Shown here: positions 16,331 through 61,421 of the stretch, one piece after another
How positions within the stretch are numbered: position 1 is the stretch's first letter
How the letters are laid out: every line of letters begins with the position of its first letter
NCBI GenBank assembly: GCA_963735025.1
Contig: CAVTJG010000009.1
Coordinates: 744,122-808,121, forward strand
Length of the DNA: 64,000 nt
Reading direction: 5' to 3'
DNA from: an uncultured beta proteobacterium
GTDB lineage: Bacteria; Pseudomonadota; Gammaproteobacteria; Burkholderiales; SG8-39
Program-made: the position numbers and the translations under genes
The notes under the pieces: generated by a model
Databases searched by the model: none
Seen by the model: only the letters and a program-made list of their open reading frames with translations
What the model was told of the DNA's origin: nothing

Positions 16331-16390
16331 CAAGGGAGCTCGCTCCCTTGTTCGTTCGGGGGATATGCAGGGGGCGGCTCCCCTTGTTCG
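16331..16390. repeat. two tandem GC-rich hairpin units of the GGGGGATATRCARGGGG...CCCTTGTTCG family
   Basis: caagggagctcgctcccttgttcg (16331-16354) is followed by ttcgggggatatgcagggggcggctccccttgttcg (16355-16390). The core motif is shared with 23654-23694 (reverse orientation) and 60489-60559. Confidence 0.65.
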
Positions 16391-16442: not shown

Positions 16443-19400
16443 ATGCGATCGAGCGATAGTGAGAGGAGTGGTTTAACAGTGGCTGGCGAATTCGATATCG
16501 GGCCGTTGACGTGGGTCAAGGGCGAGATCGACCAAGCCCTCGAGAAGTCGCTCGGGTGCCTGCGCGCCTATGCCGCCAATCCGGCCGAGACGACGCAGCT
16601 GAAGTTCTGTCGCACGCATTTTCACCAGGCGCACGGCGCGCTGCAGATCGTCGGCCTGGACGGGGTGACACGCGTCTCGGAAGAACTCGAGGGCCTGATC
16701 GGCGAGACCGAGAAGTCGGGCGCGCCGCCCAAACCCGAGATGCTCGCCGCCGCCGAGCGAACCTACGAGGCCATTTCGGCTTATCTCGATCAGCTGCTCG
16801 CCGGCGAGCCGAACCAGCCGCTGCTGCTCTTTGCCGTGTACCGGGATCTCGCCGCAGCGCGCGGCAAGGATTCCGCGGATCCGGTCGATCTCTACTATCC
16901 TGATCTTTCGCACCGCCCGCCGCGCCGCGAACGCGCACCGTCGGCGCACACGGGCGACGCGCTGATCCAGCACTATCGCGACGCGCGCGCGCGCTATCAG
17001 CGCGGGCTGCTCAAGCTCCTCAAAAAGGATCCGACCGGAGCCGAAGACATGCGCGCCGCAGTGACGGCGGTCGAGGCGGCGCAAAGCGTGCCCGCGCAGC
17101 GCACATTCTGGTGGGTCGCCCTCGGATTCTTCGATGCGCTGGTCGCGCGTGCGATGCCCGACAACCCGACGCTCATGCGCCTGTGCAATCGCATCGAACA
17201 CCAGCTCAAGCGACTCGTCGAAGGCTCGACCAATGTCGCCGAGCGCTTGACGCGTGAGGCGCTATTCGCCGTGGCGCGCGCCCGGCCGGCAACCGAGCAC
17301 CTCCGGCAAGTCCAGGAGACCTTCGAGCTCGCCGGCTCGATCCCCGGCAGCTTCGAGCTGAAATCGGAATCCGCTGGCCAGTTGCCCGGCGTGCGTGCGA
17401 TGCGCGAGCTGGTCACGCAGGCCAAGACCTCCTGGAACAAGGCCGCATCCGGCCACCAGGGAAGCCTTGCCGCGTTCCGCGATCAGACCGCGCAGCTCGC
17501 CAAGCGTGCGGCCGAATCGGGCGACGATCTGTTGAAGGCGCTCGCCACCGATATGGCGATCACCGCAAAGTGGCTCGGCGACAGCCCCGACAAGGTGACC
17601 GACGCGGTCGCCATGGAAGTGGCCACCGCGTTGCTGCTGGTCGAGAACGCCACCGAGAACTACGCGCGCCTCGGCGATGAATTCAAGCAGCAAGTCGCAT
17701 TGATGCGCGGGCGGCTGCAGGGTGTCATGCAGGGCAAGATGCCCGAAGGCGCCGCGCCGGTGCTGGACGAGATGTCGCGCCGCGCCCAGGAACGCCTGCT
17801 GATGAGCCACGTCGTGGGCGAGATCAACGCGAGCCTGCGGTCGGTCGAGCAGGCGCTCGATGCGTTCTTCCGCGATTCCTCCCAGCGCCCCGAGCTCGTC
17901 GCGCTCGACAAGCCGATGCGTCAGGTGCTGGGCGCGTTGACCATGTTGAACGAGGACCGCGCCGCCGCGGCATTGTCCACGTGCGCGGCCGAGATCCAGC
18001 GCTTCGCCTCGCCGGACTATGCGCCAGCCCAGTCCGACTTCGAGCGAGTGGCCGGCACGCTGTCGGGACTCGGCTTCTATGTCGATTCGTTGCAGCACGG
18101 TAAGACCGATTTCGATGCCTTCATGCTGCCGATCGGCGCGCGCAAGGAAGCGCCTGCCGAAGAAGCGGAGACCGCCCAGGCGAGTGCCAGCGTCGAGGCC
18201 GGTCTTGCGAAGGGCAAGCGCGAAGTCCAGGAGCTCTTCGAGCGGTGGAAGAAAGAGCCTGGCGACGCGGCGCTCAAGGCCAAGCTCGAGGAGAATCTCC
18301 AGGCGTTGCAGAAGGACGCGAGCCTGACTGCGGAAGGCGCGCTCGAATCACGCGTCGCCGAGATGCTCGCGGTGCTCAAGAAAAGCGACGCCAAGACGTT
18401 CGATCCGGTGGCCACGCAGACGCTCGAGGGCATCACACCCGCATCCGCCGAGCCGCCGCCCTCGGCGAAGACCGAGGAACTCGTCAGCGCGAGCGCCGAG
18501 AAGGTCGACGCCGAGCTGCTCGCCGTGTATCTCGAGGAGGCGGGCGAGGTGCTCGCGACCATCGGTGCGAGCGTCGAGCAGGTGCGCGGAGAGCTGCACA
18601 ACATCGAGGAGCTGCGCACCATCCGGCGCGGCTTCCACACATTGAAGGGCAGCGGCCGGATGGTGGGACTGACCCGACTGGGCGAGGCCGCATGGGCGGT
18701 CGAGCAGGTGATGAACAAGTGGCTCGAGGAGGAGAGTCCGGCAACGCCCGATCTTCTGCGGCTCGTCGCCGAGGCGCAGTCGTTCTTCGGCGCCGCCGTC
18801 GAGGACCTCAAGTGCGGCGGAGCCGGACCCGACGAAGCCGCGATCGTCGCGCTCTCGCAGCAGGTGAAGTCCGGCGAACCATTGGGGGAAACCGCGAGTG
18901 CCCAATCGGCACCCGTGTCCGCGCCGGAAGCACCTGTCGAGGTGACCGAAGCACCGGTATTTGAAGAACAGGCTGCCGCCCCGGCAATCGAGGAAGTGGC
19001 GGAAGCGCCGGACACTCCGGTAATCGAGGAAGTGGCGGAAGCGCCGGACACTCCGGCAATCGAGCCACAGGAGTCCGTGCCCTTCGAACTTGCCGAAACG
19101 CTCACCGTGCCGCAAGAGTCAGCGCCAGAGGTCGACTTTCCCGCGTTCGAACTTCCCGGCGAGTCGCCTGCGCCCGCAATCGACCTGCCTGATTTCGATC
19201 TTCCGATTGGCGCACCGGAGGCGGAGGTTCTGCAGCCCGCCGCCGCACCGTCCGACGCACCGCCACCGGCCAAGGAGCCGGCACTTGGACCGATCTCGCT
19301 GGACTTCTCCCTGCCGATGTCGACCCTGAATGCCGAACCGGATGCGCAGCAGACGCCGCCGCCTGCCGAGACTCCGCCGGTCGAGGAACTGTTGCCATCC

Positions 19401-22400
19401 GCGATGACACCGGCTGACGACGATGCCGACAATACCGTGCACATCGGCGACGTCGAGCTGTCGCACTCTCTGTACGACATATTCAAGAGCGAATCGCGGG
19501 AGCATCTCGATGGCATCGCTGCCGCGCTGCGCGAGGTCGAGGGCGGGGCGCCCGTCAGCATCGATTTCCGCCGCGCCGCGCACACGCTTGCCGGGATTGC
19601 CGGAACGGTCAATTTCGATGGCATGTGGGCAGTCGGACACGCGCTGGAGCACATGCTTCACCGCGCCCAGGATCGCGCACTCGATGGCGCCGAGCTCGGC
19701 ACCGCGCGCGACGCGCTGGCGAAACTGGAGGAGATGGCCGCGGCGGTTGCCGCCGGTGTCGCGCCGCTTCCGGATCCGGATCTCGTCGCACGAATCGAGG
19801 CGACCGGCGACGCGCTCGCGGACTCGGCGGCGCTCAGCGATCCGGGCGAGAGCGACGATACGCTGACCCTTCCGGGCGGCGCGGGCGACGAAGACGCGCT
19901 CGATTTCACTGCGCTCGCCCCCGAGGGGGAAAGCGCTCCGGCGGCGCCTGCGGCGCCCGCCAATGTCGTGTCCTTCCCCGCTCCCGCGGAGGTTGCCGAG
20001 TCTCCGCCGGCCGACGTCAAGGTCGAGGAGATCCCGGTCGAGCGACGGCGCAGTCCGCGCGAAGAGGCTGCACGGGAGGCGCCGGCTGCGCCGCGCGCCG
20101 AGCACGGTCCCGACGTGACCGTCGAGGAGATTCCCGTCGAGCGGCGTCAACGCCGCCTCGACGACGATATCGATCCCGAGTTGCTGCCGATCTTCCTGGA
20201 AGAGGCGCACGAACTCATTCCGGCGGTGGGACAAGGGTTGCGCGACTGGCGCGCAAGTCCGGAGAACGCGGCCGCGGGCCAGGGTCTGCAACGCGTGCTG
20301 CACACGCTAAAGGGCTCCGCGCGAATGTGCGGTGCCATGGCGCTCGGCGAGCTGACGCACTCGATGGAAACGAAGATCGAGAACGCGATGGCGCTGAAAA
20401 CGCCACCCGACTCGCTGTTCGACGAATTCGACGCGGCCTACGACCGGATGGGTCTGCTCTTCGAACGCATGCAACTTCCCGAGGCGCTCGCCCCCGCTGC
20501 GCCCGAGCCGGCACCAGAACCGGCCGAGCCCGCAGAAGTCGAGCCGGATGTCGAGCCCGTCAGTGAGGCGGCGGCGTCCGAAGTGCCGGATGTCGATGCG
20601 CCGCAGCCGGCGGAGCCCGCTCCCGCGCGCGCCTCCGCCGCCCTCCCCGCGGCACGACCGGCCGGAGTCGAGCCGGACCCTGCTTTACAGACTCGCGCGA
20701 TGCTGCGCGTGCGCGCCGAGGTGATTGACCGGCTGGTGAACGAAGCGGGCGAGGTCAGCATCGCCCGCAGCCGGATCGAGGGCGAGTTGCGCGCCTTGAA
20801 GGGCGCGCTCTCCGAACTCACCGACAACACGAACCGTCTGCGCACGCAGCTGCGCGAGATCGAGATCCAGGCCGAGTCCCAGATGCAGTCGCGCCTCTCG
20901 CAGGTGCAGGAAGTCGAGACGCCGTTCGATCCGCTCGAATTCGACCGGTTCACTCGCTTCCAGGAAATCACGCGAATGATGGCCGAGAGCGTGAACGACG
21001 TCGCCACGGTGCAGCAGAATATTCTGCGTGCGGTGGGCGATGCGGACGGCGCGCTGTCCGCGCAGTCGCGACTCACGCGCGGCTTGCAAACCGACCTGAT
21101 GCGTATCCGGATGGTCCCCTTCTCGAGCGTCGCGGACCGGCTCTACCGCGTCGTGCGACAGGCGGCCAAGGAGACCGATAAGCGCGCAGTGCTCGACATT
21201 CGCGGCGGACAGGTGGAACTCGACCGCTCGGTGCTGGAGCGCATCACCGCGCCGTTCGAGCACATGCTCAGGAATTCGGTGGCGCACGGTATCGAAGCAC
21301 CCGCAACCCGCATCGAGCGCAGCAAGCCCGAGCTCGGCGAGATCAAGATCGAGGTGCGGCAGGAAGGCAACGAGATCATGCTCATGGTGTCGGACGACGG
21401 CGCCGGCCTCAACCTGCCGCGGATCCTCGAGAAGGCGCGTGCGCTGGGCCTCGTCGAGCCCGACCAGACGCCGACCAACGCGGAGATCGCGGATTTCATC
21501 TTCCACCCGGGATTCTCAACCGCCGCCGAAGTGAGCCAACTCGCCGGCCGCGGTGTCGGAATGGACGTGGTGAAGAGCGAGGCGGCGGCGCTCGGCGGGC
21601 GCATCGAGACGCACACCGAGCTCGGCAAGGGCACACGCTTCCTCATCTACCTGCCGCTCACGCTTGCCGTCACGCAGGCGGTGCTGGTTCGCGCCGGCCC
21701 GGTCCGGTTTGCCATTCCGGCGGTCATGGTCGAGCAGGTCCGGCAGGTCAAGACGCCGGAACTCGCCGCCTGTACGGAGTCGGGCGAGGCGCAGTGGCAA
21801 AATCGCAGCTATCCGTTCCGTTACCTGCCGCGCCTGCTCGGTGACTTCGACAGCCTGCCCGAGCAGAAGCGGTTCCACTCGATCATGTTCGTGCGCAGCG
21901 GCGCAAACGTCGTCGCGATCCACGTCGACGAAGTCGCGGGCGCGCAGGAAATCGTGGTCAAGAACACCGGGCCGCTGCTTTCACGCATCGCCGGCATCAC
22001 CGGCGCGACGGTGCTCGGCTCCGGCGAGATCGTGCTCATCATCAACCCGGTGATCCTTGCCGGCCGCGAACCGATCGAGTTCAGCTCGACGGACGCACCC
22101 GTCGTGGCGCGGGAGGAGGCGCCGATCCTCACCATACCGACCGTGATGATCGTCGACGATTCGCTCACGGTGCGCAAGATCACGGGCCGGTTGCTTTCGC
22201 GCGAGGGTTTCCACGTCCTCACGGCGAAGGACGGTGTGGACGCAGTGGAGCAACTGCAGGAGACGCTCCCGGATGTGATGCTGGTCGATATCGAAATGCC
22301 GCGGATGGACGGCTTCGACCTCACTCGCGCCGTGCGCGGCGATCCGCGGCTGCGCCACATTCCGATCATCATGATCACCTCGCGTACCGCCGAGCGACAC

Positions 22401-22549: not shown

Positions 22550-23611
22550 CTAGCGCACCGATTCGAGCGGGCGCGTCTCGCCGTGCTTCAGCACCCAGAA
22601 CGCGTCGCTCGACAATCCTCGCGCGGCGAGCGCTGCGCGCAGGCGCTCCGGCGGCTCGTACAGCGACTCGTCAGTGAGATCGTCGAAGGTCCCCCAGTGG
22701 ATCGCGACCGACTGCCGCGCGCCGAGATCGAGATGGATCTGCACGGCTTCCTCGGGATCGACGTGCATGACCCGCATGAACCAGCGCGGAGCGTAGCCGC
22801 CGATCGGGATGGCGGCGAGATCGATCGTGCCGACGCGCGCGGCGATATCGCGGAAGTCGGGCGAGTATCCGGTGTCTCCGGCGAAAAAGAACCGCAGTCC
22901 GGAACCTTCGACGACGAAGCCGCCCCACAACGTCTGGTTGCGGTCCCACGGCGTGCGCGCGCTCCAGTGCTGCACGGGCACAAACCGGATCACGACGCTA
23001 TCGAGGCTGCGTGAGTCCCACCAGTCCATTTCTTCCACGTTCGTGATGCCGAGCGTGGCGAACCAGGGCTTGAGCCCGAGGCCGACGTAGAAGCGTGGCG
23101 GGCCGCCAGCCTGCTTGGCGAGGGCCCGTACCGATGCTTCGTCGAGATGATCGTAGTGGCTGTGCGAGACCAGCACGGCATCGATGTGCGGTAGCTTGGC
23201 GAGCGGAATCGCCGGCTCGACCACGCGCCTCGGCCCCACGCTGGAAAGCGGCGATGCGCGCAGCGAGAACTGCGGGTCGGTGAGGATATTCAGCCCGCCG
23301 ACACGCAGGAGCAACGTCGCATGACCGATCCATGTAACGCTCGGATTTGCGAGCGCGACTGGGTTTGCCTGCTGCTCGACCTCGAATCGATACCCGCCTT
23401 CCGGCTTTTTCGGCAGGCCGTCGCGCATTTGCTCCCACTTCCATTTCCAGAAGCTCCGGCCGCTTTCGTGCGGGTAGTTGTTGCGGAACCCCTCGGGCGT
23501 GTGATGTGGTTTCGAAGGATCGAAATACGGGTTCGACATCGTGCATCCGGCGAGGACGCTCGCCAGCAGAGTTGGCAGGAATCGTACCAGTCGTGTCATT
23601 GGCTGAATCAT
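22550..23611 (-). CDS. MBL-fold metallo-hydrolase lipoprotein (NAPE-PLD-like)
   Basis: ORF 22550..23764, with the likely start at ATG 23611 or 23599. It has a lipobox (LLASVLAGC) and the HxHxDH motif (VLVSHSHYDHLD). Confidence 0.8.
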   Translation of the reverse strand: MIQPMTRLVRFLPTLLASVLAGCTMSNPYFDPSKPHHTPEGFRNNYPHESGRSFWKWKWEQMRDGLPKKPEGGYRFEVEQQANPVALANPSVTWIGHATLLLRVGGLNILTDPQFSLRASPLSSVGPRRVVEPAIPLAKLPHIDAVLVSHSHYDHLDEASVRALAKQAGGPPRFYVGLGLKPWFATLGITNVEEMDWWDSRSLDSVVIRFVPVQHWSARTPWDRNQTLWGGFVVEGSGLRFFFAGDTGYSPDFRDIAARVGTIDLAAIPIGGYAPRWFMRVMHVDPEEAVQIHLDLGARQSVAIHWGTFDDLTDESLYEPPERLRAALAARGLSSDAFWVLKHGETRPLESVR

Positions 23612-23742
23612 GAAGATCGATACGCGCGCTTGGCGCGCTCGTATCGCTCCAGGCTCCGATGGAACAAGGGAGCACACCCCCTTGTATATCCCCCAATCAT
23701 GAAGATCGAAACGCGCGCTTGGCGCGCTCGTATCGCTCCAGG
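23606..23742. repeat. 48-bp direct duplication of the phr 3' end / MBL start junction flanking a 41-bp hairpin insert
   Basis: aatcatgaagatcgaWacgcgcgcttggcgcgctcgtatcgctccagg occurs at 23606-23653 and 23695-23742 (47/48 identical). The spacer 23654-23694 contains cccccttgtatatccccc, the reverse complement of the GGGGGATATACAAGGGGG motif. Confidence 0.85.
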
Positions 23743-58754: not shown

Positions 58755-60014
58755 ATGCACCGCGTTCTGCTGTTGTTTCCGACCACCAGTTACCGCAACG
58801 TGGATTTTCTCGCTGCCGCGAAAAAGCTCGGCGTGGAAATCGTCGCCGCGGCGGACTACTGTCACCAACTCGCCCCGTCCTGGGGTCTGCCGCCGATCAT
58901 GGCCCTGCATTTCGACCGGCCCGAGCAGGCGGCGGACACTGTTCTGCGGGAGCTCGCGGGCAAGCCCACCGCCGTGCTGGCGGTGGACGATTCGGGAGTG
59001 GAGCTCGCTGCGTTGCTGACGGAGCGTCTCGGTCTGCCGGGAAACCCTGTTCATGCGGTGCAGCGCGTGCGCGACAAGCTGGCGTTCCGTCGACTGCTTC
59101 GCGAGCATGATTTCCTGTGCCCCGATTTTAGGCACCTGCCGACCGGCGTGGACCCTCGCTCACTGTCACGGGATCTGAAGTATCCCGTGGTGGTGAAAGC
59201 GCGGCGGCTTTCGGCGAGCCGCGGGGTGATTCGCGCCGACGATGCCGATGCACTCGTGCGAGCCGTGAACTGGGTGCGGGCCATCCAGTCCCGCGCCGAT
59301 CGTGATGCCCGGGAGCTGGGCATCCTCATCGAGGACTTCATACCCGGTCGCGAATATGCCCTCGAAGGCACGCTGGAGCGCGACGGCCTGACCATGCTCG
59401 CCCTTTTCGACAAACCCGATCCGCTGGACGGGCCGTATTTCGAGGAGACGCTCTACGTCACGCCTTCCCGGTTGCCGGGCGAGCTCCAGCACCGCTTGCA
59501 CCAGGAAGTCGCGCGAGCATGCCACGCTGCCGGGCTGGTGACCGGTTCGATTCATGCCGAGGTGCGTATCAACGACCGCGGCATCTGGATCCTGGAGATT
59601 GCGCCGCGCTCCATCGGCGGCCTGTGCGGGCGGATGCTCACCCATTCGCTCGGCATGACGCTGGAGGAATTCATCCTGCGCCAGGCCATTGCAGATCCGC
59701 GGCCGGTACGGAGCGCGGGCGGCGCGTCGGGCGTGATGATGATCCCCGTTCCGCGCCGCGGCATTTATCATGGCATCGAGGGGCTGACTGCCGCCCAGTC
59801 CGTGCCTGGTGTGACCGGACTGACCATTTCGGCGCAGCCCGGTCAGATCATCGCGCCGCCTCCCGACGGCGCGAGCTATCTGGGATTCATCTTTGCGCGC
59901 GCGGAGCATCCTGAGGAGGCCGAACGCGCGTTGCGAATGGCGCATTGCGCGCTGACGTTCGACATCCGTCCCGAGTATCCGGCGATGCTCGCGCCTGCAG
60001 CCGAAAAGGCATGA
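58755..60014 (+). CDS. ATP-grasp domain ligase (L-amino-acid-ligase-like)
   Basis: 419-aa ORF starting 12 nt after the radical SAM stop. ATP-grasp elements are present: DKLAFRRLLREH, YPVVVKARRLSASRGV, ILIEDFIPGREYALEG and IHAEVRINDRGIWILEIAPRSIGG. Confidence 0.85.
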   Translation: MHRVLLLFPTTSYRNVDFLAAAKKLGVEIVAAADYCHQLAPSWGLPPIMALHFDRPEQAADTVLRELAGKPTAVLAVDDSGVELAALLTERLGLPGNPVHAVQRVRDKLAFRRLLREHDFLCPDFRHLPTGVDPRSLSRDLKYPVVVKARRLSASRGVIRADDADALVRAVNWVRAIQSRADRDARELGILIEDFIPGREYALEGTLERDGLTMLALFDKPDPLDGPYFEETLYVTPSRLPGELQHRLHQEVARACHAAGLVTGSIHAEVRINDRGIWILEIAPRSIGGLCGRMLTHSLGMTLEEFILRQAIADPRPVRSAGGASGVMMIPVPRRGIYHGIEGLTAAQSVPGVTGLTISAQPGQIIAPPPDGASYLGFIFARAEHPEEAERALRMAHCALTFDIRPEYPAMLAPAAEKA

Positions 60015-60041
60015 CCGGAAATCACGCCGGCTTCTGAGCGA

Positions 60042-60461
60042 CTAGAACGGCTTCACGACGACGAGTATCACCGCCGCAACGAGGAACAGGACCGGCACCT
60101 CGTTGAACCACCGGAACCAGACGTGCGACTTCGTGTTCCGATCACTCTTGAAATTCTTCATGAGCTTGCCGCACCACAGGTGGTAGACGACGAGCGCCGC
60201 CACCACCGCCAGCTTTGCGTGTAGCCAGCCGCCCGCGAAGCCGTAGCCTAGCCACAGCCAGGTGCCGAAGACGATCGTCAGCACCGCGCTCGGCGCCATG
60301 ATGCCGAAATAGAGCTTGCGCTCCATGATCTTGAAGCGCTCGTTTCCCGCCTTCTCCGTGGGATCGATCATCGCGTGGTAGACGAACAGGCGCGGGAGAT
60401 AGAAGAGGCCGGCGAACCAAGTGACCATGAAGATGATGTGCAGGGCTTTTATCCAGAGCAT
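60042..60461 (-). CDS. hemJ: protoporphyrinogen IX oxidase HemJ (UPF0093 family)
   Basis: ORF 60042..60545. The family-typical N-terminus (MLWIKALHIIFMVTWFAGLFYLPRLFVYH) starts at ATG 60461. The upstream extension reads through a repeat insert. Confidence 0.85.
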   Translation of the reverse strand: MLWIKALHIIFMVTWFAGLFYLPRLFVYHAMIDPTEKAGNERFKIMERKLYFGIMAPSAVLTIVFGTWLWLGYGFAGGWLHAKLAVVAALVVYHLWCGKLMKNFKSDRNTKSHVWFRWFNEVPVLFLVAAVILVVVKPF

Positions 60462-60605
60462 GGTGCTATATCCATCGACGACCACCTGATTTGGGGGATA
60501 TACAAGGGGCGGGAAGGGGTGAGGGGGCCCCTTCCCTTCCCCCATAGCCCCTTTGTTCGATTGTGACCATGAAGATGACGTGCAGGGCTTTTATCCAGAG
60601 CATGG
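60421..60605. repeat. 43-bp direct duplication of the hemJ start junction flanking a 99-bp hairpin insert
   Basis: gtgaccatgaagatgaYgtgcagggcttttatccagagcatgg occurs at 60421-60463 and 60563-60605 (42/43 identical). The spacer 60464-60562 has ttgggggatatacaagggg, a nested stem (GGGAAGGGG 60511-60519 / CCCCTTCCC 60528-60536) and cccctttgttcg. Confidence 0.85.
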
Positions 60606-61397
60606 CTAGGAAAGCAATCGTTTGCGAAACAGGATGAGCGCAGCGTAAAAGGCGACCGCGCCGTACGCGATCAGCACCAACAAGTGTAGCGCGATGTCCG
60701 CAGGAATTTCGCCGAGCAGCAGCGGGCGCACGAGCAAGGTGGCATGCGTGAGCGGCAGTGCGTGCGAGACGATCTGGATGCCCGCGGGCAGCTGATCGAC
60801 CGGGAAGAAGACGCCGGAAAGCATCGCCATCGGCGTGATGAACAGCGTGAAGTAGTACATGAAGAAATCGTACGAGGGCGACACCGCCGTCACGACCAGC
60901 CCGAGCCCGCTGAACGCGAAGCCGATCACCGGGATGAGCGGCAGGACCCAGAGCGCGAGCCAGCTCTTGAGCAGACCCAGCGCCGCGGCCACCAGCAGGA
61001 TCGCCAGGCCGGAGAGGAACGACTTGCTCGCCGCCCACGTGCATTCACCGAGCACGATGTCCTCCAGCGCGAGCGGCGCGTTCAGCATGGCATCCCAGCT
61101 GCGCTGCACCTGCATGCGCGAGAAAGAGGAATAGAGGGTCTCGAACGTCGCGCTGTTCATGGTCGAGAAGCAAACCGTCCCGGCCGCAAGATAGACGATA
61201 TACGGAACGCCATTCACTTCCGGGAGCAGCCTGCCCAGACCGTAACCGAAGCCGAGCATGTAGATCATCGGATCGGCCAGATTGCCGAGCATCGAGGGCA
61301 CCGCGAGCTTTTGCCAGACGAGGAACATGCGGCGCCAGACGGCCGTGAAGCGCCACGAGAGCTGCGGCGGCGCGAACGAATAGGCGGCCGGGATCAT
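60606..61397 (-). CDS. nodJ: ABC-2 type exporter permease (NodJ-like)
   Basis: 263-aa ORF with six TM segments, downstream of the NodI-like ATPase gene. Confidence 0.8.
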   Translation of the reverse strand: MIPAAYSFAPPQLSWRFTAVWRRMFLVWQKLAVPSMLGNLADPMIYMLGFGYGLGRLLPEVNGVPYIVYLAAGTVCFSTMNSATFETLYSSFSRMQVQRSWDAMLNAPLALEDIVLGECTWAASKSFLSGLAILLVAAALGLLKSWLALWVLPLIPVIGFAFSGLGLVVTAVSPSYDFFMYYFTLFITPMAMLSGVFFPVDQLPAGIQIVSHALPLTHATLLVRPLLLGEIPADIALHLLVLIAYGAVAFYAALILFRKRLLS

Positions 61398-61421
61398 GAT
61401 GCCATCTCGTCGATCAGGAAG

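Follow-up and report, generated by a model that had tools for sequence, protein, structure and literature searches.

A small REP-like hairpin repeat inserted with a long target duplication at the nodJ-hemJ junction of an uncultured betaproteobacterium, and its recurrence at other gene termini

The nodJ-hemJ junction

We examined a stretch of 64,000 nucleotides from the genome of an uncultured betaproteobacterium of the order Burkholderiales (GenBank assembly GCA_963735025.1, contig CAVTJG010000009.1, positions 744,122 to 808,121; hereafter the window). At one gene junction in this window the start of hemJ occurs twice, as a direct repeat around a short non-coding insert that carries a hairpin resembling repetitive extragenic palindromic (REP) sequences. 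All genes across 60000-61400 lie on the minus strand. In the direction of transcription, the junction has the following parts:

60606-61397, minus strand: nodJ-like gene for an ABC-2 type transporter permease (open reading frame of 263 aa), stop codon TAG at 60606-60608
60563-60605, minus strand: upstream copy of the 43-nt duplication (CC and hemJ nucleotides 1-41), holding the native nodJ junction and a decoy ATG (60603)
60466-60603, minus strand: decoy open reading frame (ORF) of 45 codons plus TAG (MLWIKALHVIFMVT-IEQRGYGGREGAPSPLPAPCISPKSGGRRWI, then stop), with its stop at 60466-60468, running through the insert
60464-60562, plus strand: inserted DNA of 99 nt, absent from two relatives (L208, L210) and 66 nt long in three others (L209, L211, L120)
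60493-60556, plus strand: REP-like hairpin core, GGGGGATAT plus the stem ACAAGGGG ... CCCCTTTGT, from motif search and fold
60510-60547, no strand assigned: second small palindrome (GGGAAGGGG..CCCCTTCCCTTCCC), inside the loop of the first hairpin, from comparison with L209 and L120
60421-60463, minus strand: downstream copy of the duplication, made up of CC and nucleotides 1-41 of the functional hemJ, from direct-repeat comparison
60042-60461, minus strand: intact hemJ (protoporphyrinogen oxidase HemJ / UPF0093, 139 aa), ATG at 60461

The two copies match at 42 of 43 positions within 142 nt, for which the chance expectation is essentially zero. A preliminary description of this stretch, made by reading the sequence, had reported the repeat with its single mismatch and the decoy ORF whose stop lies 4 nt before the hemJ ATG; the coordinates of both were reproduced here. 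Across the whole window, the near-identical close direct repeats consist of this pair and one other (W2, below), the rest being coding repeats of 74-87% identity. The nodJ-like gene has homologs with PF01061/PF12698 that are named NodJ or lipooligosaccharide transport permease in their sources, and its similarity to relatives stops at its stop codon. The hemJ gene was identified through an exact-match protein (P0001) with PF03653/PF05425, whose homologs NCBI calls HemJ. Read in the orientation of the hairpin, the 99-nt insert begins with a unique left arm of 29 nt, continues with the hairpin core (64 nt) and closes with a right tail of 6 nt. It folds as a nested GC hairpin that lies antisense to the genes.

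Empty and filled alleles in relatives

Comparison with members of the window's own NodJ 90% cluster revealed both empty and filled alleles of this junction. One relative with the same synteny (L208), identical to the window at 773/792 nt of nodJ (97.6%) and 409/420 nt of hemJ (97.4%), has an empty site, and a second relative (L210) is likewise empty. In both, the junction reads ...CTTTCCTAG CC ATGCTCTGGATAAAAGCCCTGCACATCATCTTCATGGTCAC TTGG... (ATGCTCTGG...GGTCAC before TTGG), the sequence left when the insert and one copy of the repeat are taken out of the window. The preliminary description had held that the upstream copy keeps the ancestral TAG-cc-ATG junction, and had proposed a look for empty sites in relatives; the exact empty sites of L208 and L210 agree with the former and rule out an ancient fixed spacer.

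Two further relatives (L209, L211), whose NodJ protein is identical to that of the empty L210, are filled: the 43-nt repeat is the same, and the insert, 66 nt long, has a simple hairpin. The same 66-nt insert is present in L120, where the contig begins inside the upstream copy and 36 nt of that copy are visible. Relative to these three, the nested palindrome adds a net 33 nt to the window insert. Thus the 99-nt insert of the preliminary description is present as reported, and is not a single unit: it consists of a 66-nt insert plus a 33-nt nested hairpin in the loop.

These comparisons show that the hemJ junction is a natural insertion polymorphism, formed by an insertion that duplicated a long stretch of its target. 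A 66-nt piece with one dispersed REP-like hairpin entered the nodJ-TAG-cc-ATG-hemJ junction, leaving positions -2 to +41 of hemJ on both sides, and later, in the lineage of the window, a second palindrome of 33 nt entered the hairpin loop to give 99 nt.

Three sublineages, 7-11% diverged in hemJ, have filled hemJ alleles, and two have empty ones. The simplest history is one old insertion followed by repeated precise loss, which the two 43-nt copies would allow by recombination or slippage, regenerating the empty site. At the four sites that differ between the two copies of L209, L210 has the state of the upstream copy at the first two and that of the downstream copy at the last two, while the upstream copy of L209 has the outgroup state at 4/4. 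L210 can thus be read as a single-crossover chimera of the L209 copies, which supports the precise-loss step.

In more distant relatives the two genes are not adjacent. The first relatives retrieved (HemJ 85-96% identical; nodJ 83%) have the order nodJ-asparaginase-(GFA)-hemJ, with a GTG start and an ordinary spacer, and in L116, L118, L123 (about 1594-2995 of L116) and L119 the asparaginase_2 and GFA-family genes separate nodJ and hemJ by 1.4 kb. On a longer timescale, then, the adjacency of nodJ and hemJ is a derived state: either the window's clade lost the asparaginase_2/GFA genes or the others gained them, and hemJ switched to a nodJ-coupled ATG start. We considered whether the upstream copy might be a templated patch at a 1.4-kb deletion scar, with the left arm a native hemJ leader. 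This was rejected given the exact empty site and the inserted arms of the moxR case described below.

Recurrence at five loci

We refer to a direct repeat bracketing an insert as an A-x-A arrangement, and to the hemJ event as W1. A search for the motif and for other A-x-A junctions, which the preliminary description had also proposed, returned at least 115 stretches with the motif and four further events: W2, moxR, L011 and L013, the last three in other metagenome-assembled genomes of Burkholderiales. W2 lies in the same window, between a photolyase gene and a gene for a metallo-beta-lactamase (MBL)-fold lipoprotein:

23606-23742, minus strand: W2, a 48-nt repeat (23606-23653 and 23695-23742, 1 mismatch) around a 41-nt insert (23654-23694)

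This arrangement had been missed although its motif copy at 23654-23694 was already cited. The repeat consists of the last 43 nt of the photolyase gene, the TGA and 2 more nt. Its upper copy completes the photolyase gene, and its lower copy leads into the MBL gene, whose start lies in that copy. The W2 hairpin is sense to the genes, where that at hemJ is antisense, and its core differs by 1 nt from the core of the hemJ insert in L209. The only relative found for W2 (L126) has the photolyase stop, a plain spacer of 32 nt and the MBL start, with no hairpin, and the joint between the lower copy and MBL coincides with an 8-nt microhomology (TCATGATT / TCATGGTT) seen in L126.

An independent case lies at moxR. 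Three contigs (L115, L206, L207) share an orthologous 82-nt insert and a 46-nt repeat that begins at the moxR ATG. A fourth (L205), whose MoxR is 92% identical, is empty, its native upstream DNA (...acgcccggacaa...) continuing into ATGATCTCC. In the filled alleles this native upstream DNA precedes the upstream copy; therefore the hairpin and both arms are inserted DNA, and the target lost nothing. The repeat copies match at 43/46 and 46/46 positions within genomes and at 36-37/46 between genomes, the genes themselves being 82% identical, so the copies have been kept alike (homogenised) in each lineage. The L207 contig opens (1-160) inside the insert arm, whose 3' part runs straight into the "upstream" repeat copy, as could be expected of tandem amplification of the repeat plus insert, or of a contig-end effect.

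To set these cases against background, direct repeats around motif copies were compared with those around random positions. Bracketing repeats were found for 26/132 motif copies, against 5/342 random positions. Many of the 26 are repeat arrays, and after filtering for unique flanks six loci remained, all with the hairpin: L011 (50 nt), L013 (69 nt), L115 (46 nt), L120, W1 and W2. Within about 360 kb that had not been selected for the motif, the unique non-coding A-x-A pairs are W1, W2 and L120 only. Among the matches listed, about 95% of hairpin copies (about 105/110) have no flanking repeat. The duplication is thus not an obligatory by-product of the spread of the family. The loci represent five events:

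hemJ event (window, L209, L211, L120): repeat 43 nt; hairpin antisense; positions -2 to +41 of the hemJ start
moxR event (L115, L206, L207): repeat 46 nt; hairpin antisense; ATG (position 0 or -1) to +46
Photolyase/MBL event (window, W2): repeat 48 nt; hairpin sense; final 43 nt of the photolyase gene, the stop codon and the 2 nt after it
Acyl-CoA dehydrogenase (ACAD) event (L011): repeat 50 nt; hairpin sense; last 50 nt, up to the stop
Cupin gene event (L013): repeat 69 nt; hairpin sense; last 49 nt, stop and 17 more nt

In all five, reading in hairpin orientation, the order is repeat, event-specific left arm (0-38 nt), core, right tail (5-12 nt) and repeat. Each insert (41-99 nt) holds a single hairpin, and the part that the five independent inserts have in common is the hairpin core of about 31 nt alone, their ends being non-homologous. 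The five events are all found at gene termini and have the same polarity, the duplicated terminal coding stretch standing on the 5' side of the hairpin, and in 4/5 a repeat boundary falls no more than 2 nt from a start or stop codon. Empty sites were found for hemJ (L208, L210) and moxR (L205). The preliminary description had remarked that the hemJ layout looks like a target duplication too long for insertion sequences (IS) or MITEs (miniature inverted-repeat transposable elements). This judgement holds across the five events, which are insertions with target duplications of 43-69 nt.

The five targets are unrelated in sequence and give no consensus. One candidate target motif (ATCTTCATG) occurs in both window events at the same repeat end, but not in the other three and was discarded; the hemJ target flank TTGGTTCG is similar to the hairpin end TTGTTCG, a likeness that was not general. 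In a further contig (L053, 4644-4819) we observed an A-x-A arrangement at the 5' end of a patatin-like phospholipase gene, where a GC-rich insert of 82 nt, free of the hairpin motif, stands between the two copies of a perfect 47-nt repeat; an ATG at the insert's edge supplies an in-frame extension of the N-terminus. Long duplications of target DNA at gene termini may not be confined to a single repeat family.

The hairpin repeat family

The motif TTGGGGGATATACAAGGGG occurs exactly at 60491-60509 (plus strand) and 23678-23696 (minus strand), and with 3 mismatches at 16356-16374, where chance would give none. The preliminary description had placed copies of the motif of the nested GC hairpin insert at 23654-23694 and 16355-16390, and both motif search and fold agree with it. 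The window thus contains three copies of the hairpin family. The third is an ordinary intergenic copy:

16331-16390, plus strand: tandem hairpin pair (CAAGGGAGCtcgGCTCCCTTGTTCG + GGGGGATATGCAGGGGGcggCTCCCCTTGTTCG) without a flanking repeat, with an orthologous copy in L050

The family was scanned with the exact string GGGGGATATACAAGGGG, taking one genome per species. Nearly all of the stretches found belong to metagenome-assembled genomes (MAGs) of uncultured Burkholderiales or Betaproteobacteria. Copies in the orientation of the motif have in common a core of 31-32 nt, GGGGGATAT + ACAAGGGG-loop-CCCCTTGT + TCG. The hairpin copies among the matches listed are mostly intergenic, and often form direct pairs or lie inside larger composite repeats. 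No Rfam family was found in the window at gathering thresholds, the insert giving just sub-threshold microRNA-hairpin noise, and a known RNA family for the hairpin was rejected on this basis. The hairpin core has no match among 72,556 plasmids, and the motif string was not found in searchable literature. A piece like the nested palindrome also sits in the hairpin loop of L106 (150-200), in the opposite relative orientation, which suggests that the nested palindrome is a separate mini-element targeting hairpin loops.

Several contigs place the hairpin in larger structures. In L010, L014, L029, L040, L071 and others it centres a composite unit of about 100 nt (CAAGT-N26-TTCCCTCTGAAGT-hairpin-TCAGTGAATCCCTA) that is sometimes tandem, and the left arm of the hemJ insert (..CCCTCTGACTT) is similar to an arm of this unit. 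In others (L003, L015, L031, L045, L062, L067, L074, L083, L084, L108) the present hairpin is scattered through dense arrays of another REP-like family (TGTAGGAGCGGCCCATGGCCGCGAAAGCG and its relatives), which resemble mosaics of the bacterial interspersed mosaic element type, with many long near-identical direct repeats and some assembly gaps. The 17-nt motif was also found in gut MAGs of Clostridia (L004, L034, L046, L055, L090, L098), in a conserved context (..GGTGAGGGGGATATACAAGGGGGAnnnnATCCCCCTTGTAAGAA..) and apparently beside the same neighbouring gene. This is probably an unrelated conserved hairpin, and its likeness to the Burkholderiales core may be coincidental. Elsewhere in the window, a long coding region contains in-frame imperfect repeats with spacings of 36 nt and 99 nt (18966-19064 and 20011-20146; 74-84% identity); it looks like a repeat-domain protein and is unrelated to the hemJ finding.

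Decoy reading frames and translational coupling

Where the site is empty, hemJ begins 2 nt past the nodJ stop and no Shine-Dalgarno sequence is obvious, so that the gene is probably translated by reinitiation. In the filled alleles this native context belongs to the decoy ATG, which stands 2 nt after the nodJ TAG, and hemJ, with its ATG 4 nt after the decoy TAG, has lost its native upstream context. The preliminary description had suggested that coupling could be preserved across the insert, and comparison of alleles supports this. In all filled hemJ alleles the decoy frame is open and ends in the same TGG ATA TAG at 4 nt from the real ATG, despite the 33-nt frame-preserving indel (the decoy has 34 codons in L209, L211 and L120). 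Both moxR lineages likewise have an open decoy, here of 43 codons, with a TGA that overlaps the real ATG, though their arms are about 35-40% diverged. The close spacing of stop and start that marks termination-reinitiation coupling is thus found at hemJ, in every filled allele, and at moxR.

Random inserts produce such a stop position in 3-6% of trials at hemJ and in 28-48% at moxR. Conservation of the decoys is suggestive of selection for a termination-reinitiation relay, short of proof. In such a relay, ribosomes ending nodJ would probably restart at the decoy ATG, translate through the hairpin and melt it, and stop at the TAG; those leaving the TAG would then restart 4 nt later at the real hemJ ATG.

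In the window allele, and in that allele only, an in-frame ATG at 60545 within the nested hairpin opens an extended HemJ ORF of 167 aa (60042-60545). Because of this restriction to one allele the extended frame is probably not used, though gene callers could be misled by it.

Comparison with known systems

Among described phenomena, the closest is the insertion with long target duplication of restriction-modification (R-M) cassettes (Nobusato et al. 2000; Furuta et al. 2010, PMC2853133). There, the repeats measure 46-47 bp in H. influenzae and T. thermophilus, can reach hundreds of bp and often span a translation start or stop; the cassettes have no transposase or integrase genes and no inverted-repeat ends, and the mechanism is unknown (PMC2853133). 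The present events share direct repeats of a unique target longer than 30 bp around the insert (43, 46, 48, 50 and 69 nt) and an orthologous empty site with a single repeat copy (at hemJ and moxR; not strictly at W2). They also have no transposase or integrase gene or inverted-repeat ends in the inserts, which lack coding capacity. On the other hand, the insert here is a non-coding hairpin repeat of 41-99 nt rather than kilobases of R-M genes, and there is no restriction enzyme to make the proposed double-strand break. A single repeat family, a single polarity and decoy ORFs that would be coupled to the real start are further differences. Since the insert is a non-coding hairpin fragment, the resemblance to R-M cassettes is one of outcome, and perhaps of mechanism, but not of cargo.

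Like REP sequences and REPINs (paired REPs), the hairpin is a short GC-rich imperfect palindrome with a conserved 5' extension and many dispersed, mostly intergenic copies, often paired or arrayed beside gene ends. The two REP superfamilies are defined by a GTAG or CGTC tag (PMC3733652). The present hairpin ends GGGGGATAT...TTGTTCG and has neither tag on either strand, so a canonical REP was rejected. Unlike the inverted doublets of REPINs, its pairs are mostly direct, and the A-x-A inserts are single. REP/REPIN papers report no target duplication, and neither the transposition of REP/REPIN elements, which RAYT transposases (IS200/IS605-like, Y1) mobilise, nor that of IS200/IS605 duplicates its target, whereas the events here have duplicated 43-69 nt.

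The small non-coding insert, the flanking direct target duplication and the presence/absence polymorphism recall MITEs and IS elements. The inserts differ from these in having no terminal inverted repeats, unlike ends and duplications of 43-69 rather than 2-15 bp, and in that most copies of the family have no duplication. Mycobacterial interspersed repetitive units (MIRUs) are tandem 40-100-bp intercistronic repeat units, whose small ORF abuts or overlaps the neighbouring genes and can pass translation on. As in MIRUs, a repeat stands here between operon genes with a small ORF that meets the ends of its neighbours. MIRUs, however, have neither this hairpin nor a duplicated flanking gene start, and the small ORF here opens with the first 14-15 codons of the downstream gene.

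Three other systems were set aside. The pair is not a template/variable repeat pair of the diversity-generating retroelement type: its few mismatches show no specificity for adenine, and it is far too small in scale. Integron attC sites were rejected because the inverse core sites are not present. Site-specific integration with att duplication does not agree with inserts of 41-99 nt at five unrelated targets.

Origin of the inserts

The inserts probably formed by a copy-and-rejoin process, we infer, and not by a transposon with fixed ends. Because the inserts share the core only and have variable arms and short tails, they look like copies of donor segments of variable length that end just past the hairpin. 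The varying ends and unique arms, the missing terminal inverted repeats and the rarity of duplication in the family argue against a classical transposon, and the short, near-constant distance from stem to right junction is in keeping with a process that stops as soon as it has copied the hairpin. In such a process, synthesis during replication or break repair would switch template and leave the target at a gene terminus, copy a donor hairpin and dissociate once the hairpin had been made, then resume on the target 43-69 nt behind its point of departure, producing the duplication. That the mechanism is unexplained, as the preliminary description had stated, still holds in the sense that this route is unproven.

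Several points weigh against this account. No donor locus was found for any left arm, a blastn-short search of every insert against 1.15 Mb having matched the hairpin core only, and no clear microhomology is visible at the junctions. Copy-choice alone does not explain the clustering of repeats at 43-50 nt or the codon-adjacent boundaries of 4/5 events, regularities that fit a dedicated enzyme better. At hemJ, the empty alleles could all be revertants, and the direction of change rests on parsimony. At W2, the 32-nt spacer of L126 is not a strict empty site, so a prior small deletion or a more complex event must be supposed. The two decoy arrangements have a joint chance probability of about 1-3%, and it is from these arrangements that coupling is deduced. 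Weighing these points, we hold with moderate confidence the whole reading of an insertion polymorphism with a copy-and-rejoin origin and a decoy relay.

The rival that fares best is a non-autonomous MITE-like or REP-like unit moved in trans by a dedicated transposase or nuclease, whose stagger of about 45-70 bp at gene termini would yield the 43-69-nt duplication. This would account for the tight clustering of repeat lengths (43, 46, 48 and 50 nt, with one of 69 nt), the boundaries within 2 nt of a start or stop in 4/5 events and the constant polarity relative to the hairpin. The occurrence of ATCTTCATG at the same repeat end of W1 and W2 and the single-nucleotide difference between the W2 and hemJ insert cores point in the same direction. 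There are precedents for long duplications, since elements of the IS1634 group make target duplications longer than those of IS1630. For IS1630 itself these measure 19-26 bp, as quoted in a passage of PMC2853133. Against it, the insert ends are not fixed, the left arms of 0-38 nt and tails of 5-12 nt being all non-homologous, and there are no terminal inverted repeats. About 95% of hairpin copies among the matches listed have no flanking repeat at all, the five events give no consensus target, and no transposase was seen in the 64 kb of genome, though none was searched for. We regard this explanation as rather unlikely.

Within copying models, the hairpin fragments could instead have been copied from single-stranded donors whose end lies shortly beyond the stem, either displaced flaps of DNA or 3' ends of RNA stabilised by REP; target-primed synthesis would then have pasted them in at gene termini, measured by a built-in ruler of about 45 nt. 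The variant is speculative and quite unlikely; if true, it would be a bacterial analogue of LINE-type (long interspersed nuclear element) retro-insertion or of flap-mediated duplication, and would also explain the insertion with long target duplication of R-M cassettes.

Retro-insertion in the strict sense, in which transcripts with hairpin-defined 3' ends are reverse-transcribed from a target nick by LINE-like target priming, predicts a constant 3' end, variable 5' truncation and a long, variable duplication. The right tail does always end 5-12 nt past the stem, with event-specific left arms of 0-38 nt and target duplications that vary from 43 to 69 nt, and the tail length matches the point downstream of stem-loops at which 3' exonucleases are reported to stall. 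Yet no reverse transcriptase was identified, the same end-points would be expected if the hairpin caused a DNA polymerase to dissociate, no datum requires an RNA intermediate, and the preference for gene termini is left unexplained. This explanation appears distinctly improbable.

Two unrelated steps would be another route: a 43-nt tandem duplication by slippage with a later hairpin insertion exactly at the joint, or a pre-existing hairpin that provoked local duplication and deletion. Hairpins and close repeats are known promoters of slippage, the W2 joint sits on the 8-nt microhomology TCATGATT / TCATGGTT seen in L126, and 1.4 kb lies between nodJ and hemJ in more distant relatives. But the coincidence of two events would be needed at five separate loci, L208, L210 and L205 are single-copy with no hairpin, no allele was found with the tandem duplication alone or the hairpin alone, and at moxR native upstream DNA precedes the upstream copy, so the arms are not native. 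We consider this very improbable. An assembly artefact, or an ancient fixed leader evolved in place, is effectively refuted: short direct repeats can confuse assemblers, and lineages about 7-10% diverged in hemJ do share the layout, but seven independent assemblies carry the two analogous layouts (four metagenome contigs for hemJ, L120, L209 and L211 among them, and L115, L206 and L207 for moxR), a 43-nt repeat is below typical assembly k-mers and read lengths, and empty alleles occur within populations encoding an identical NodJ protein.

Implications

New here are the recurrence of the arrangement at five loci, two of them in the window, its natural polymorphism and the conserved, putative decoy-ORF relay. 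Long target duplication of the type seen with R-M cassettes has been unexplained since 2000, and here it appears with inserts of less than 100 nt that belong to one repeat family. Because empty, filled, nested and possibly amplified alleles exist in nature, the question is opened to read-level population analysis and simple genetics. For annotation, such duplications create decoy starts and in-frame upstream ATGs that can mislead gene callers.

For the genomes that carry them, these events represent a benign mode of entry into operons, in which a REP-like element can enter a coupled junction, or the first codons of a gene, without inactivating genes. The duplication preserves both gene ends, the decoy ORF appears to hand ribosomes to the real start, and the insertion can be undone through its own repeats. 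This route, real and little described, takes tiny repeats into bacterial operons without breaking genes.

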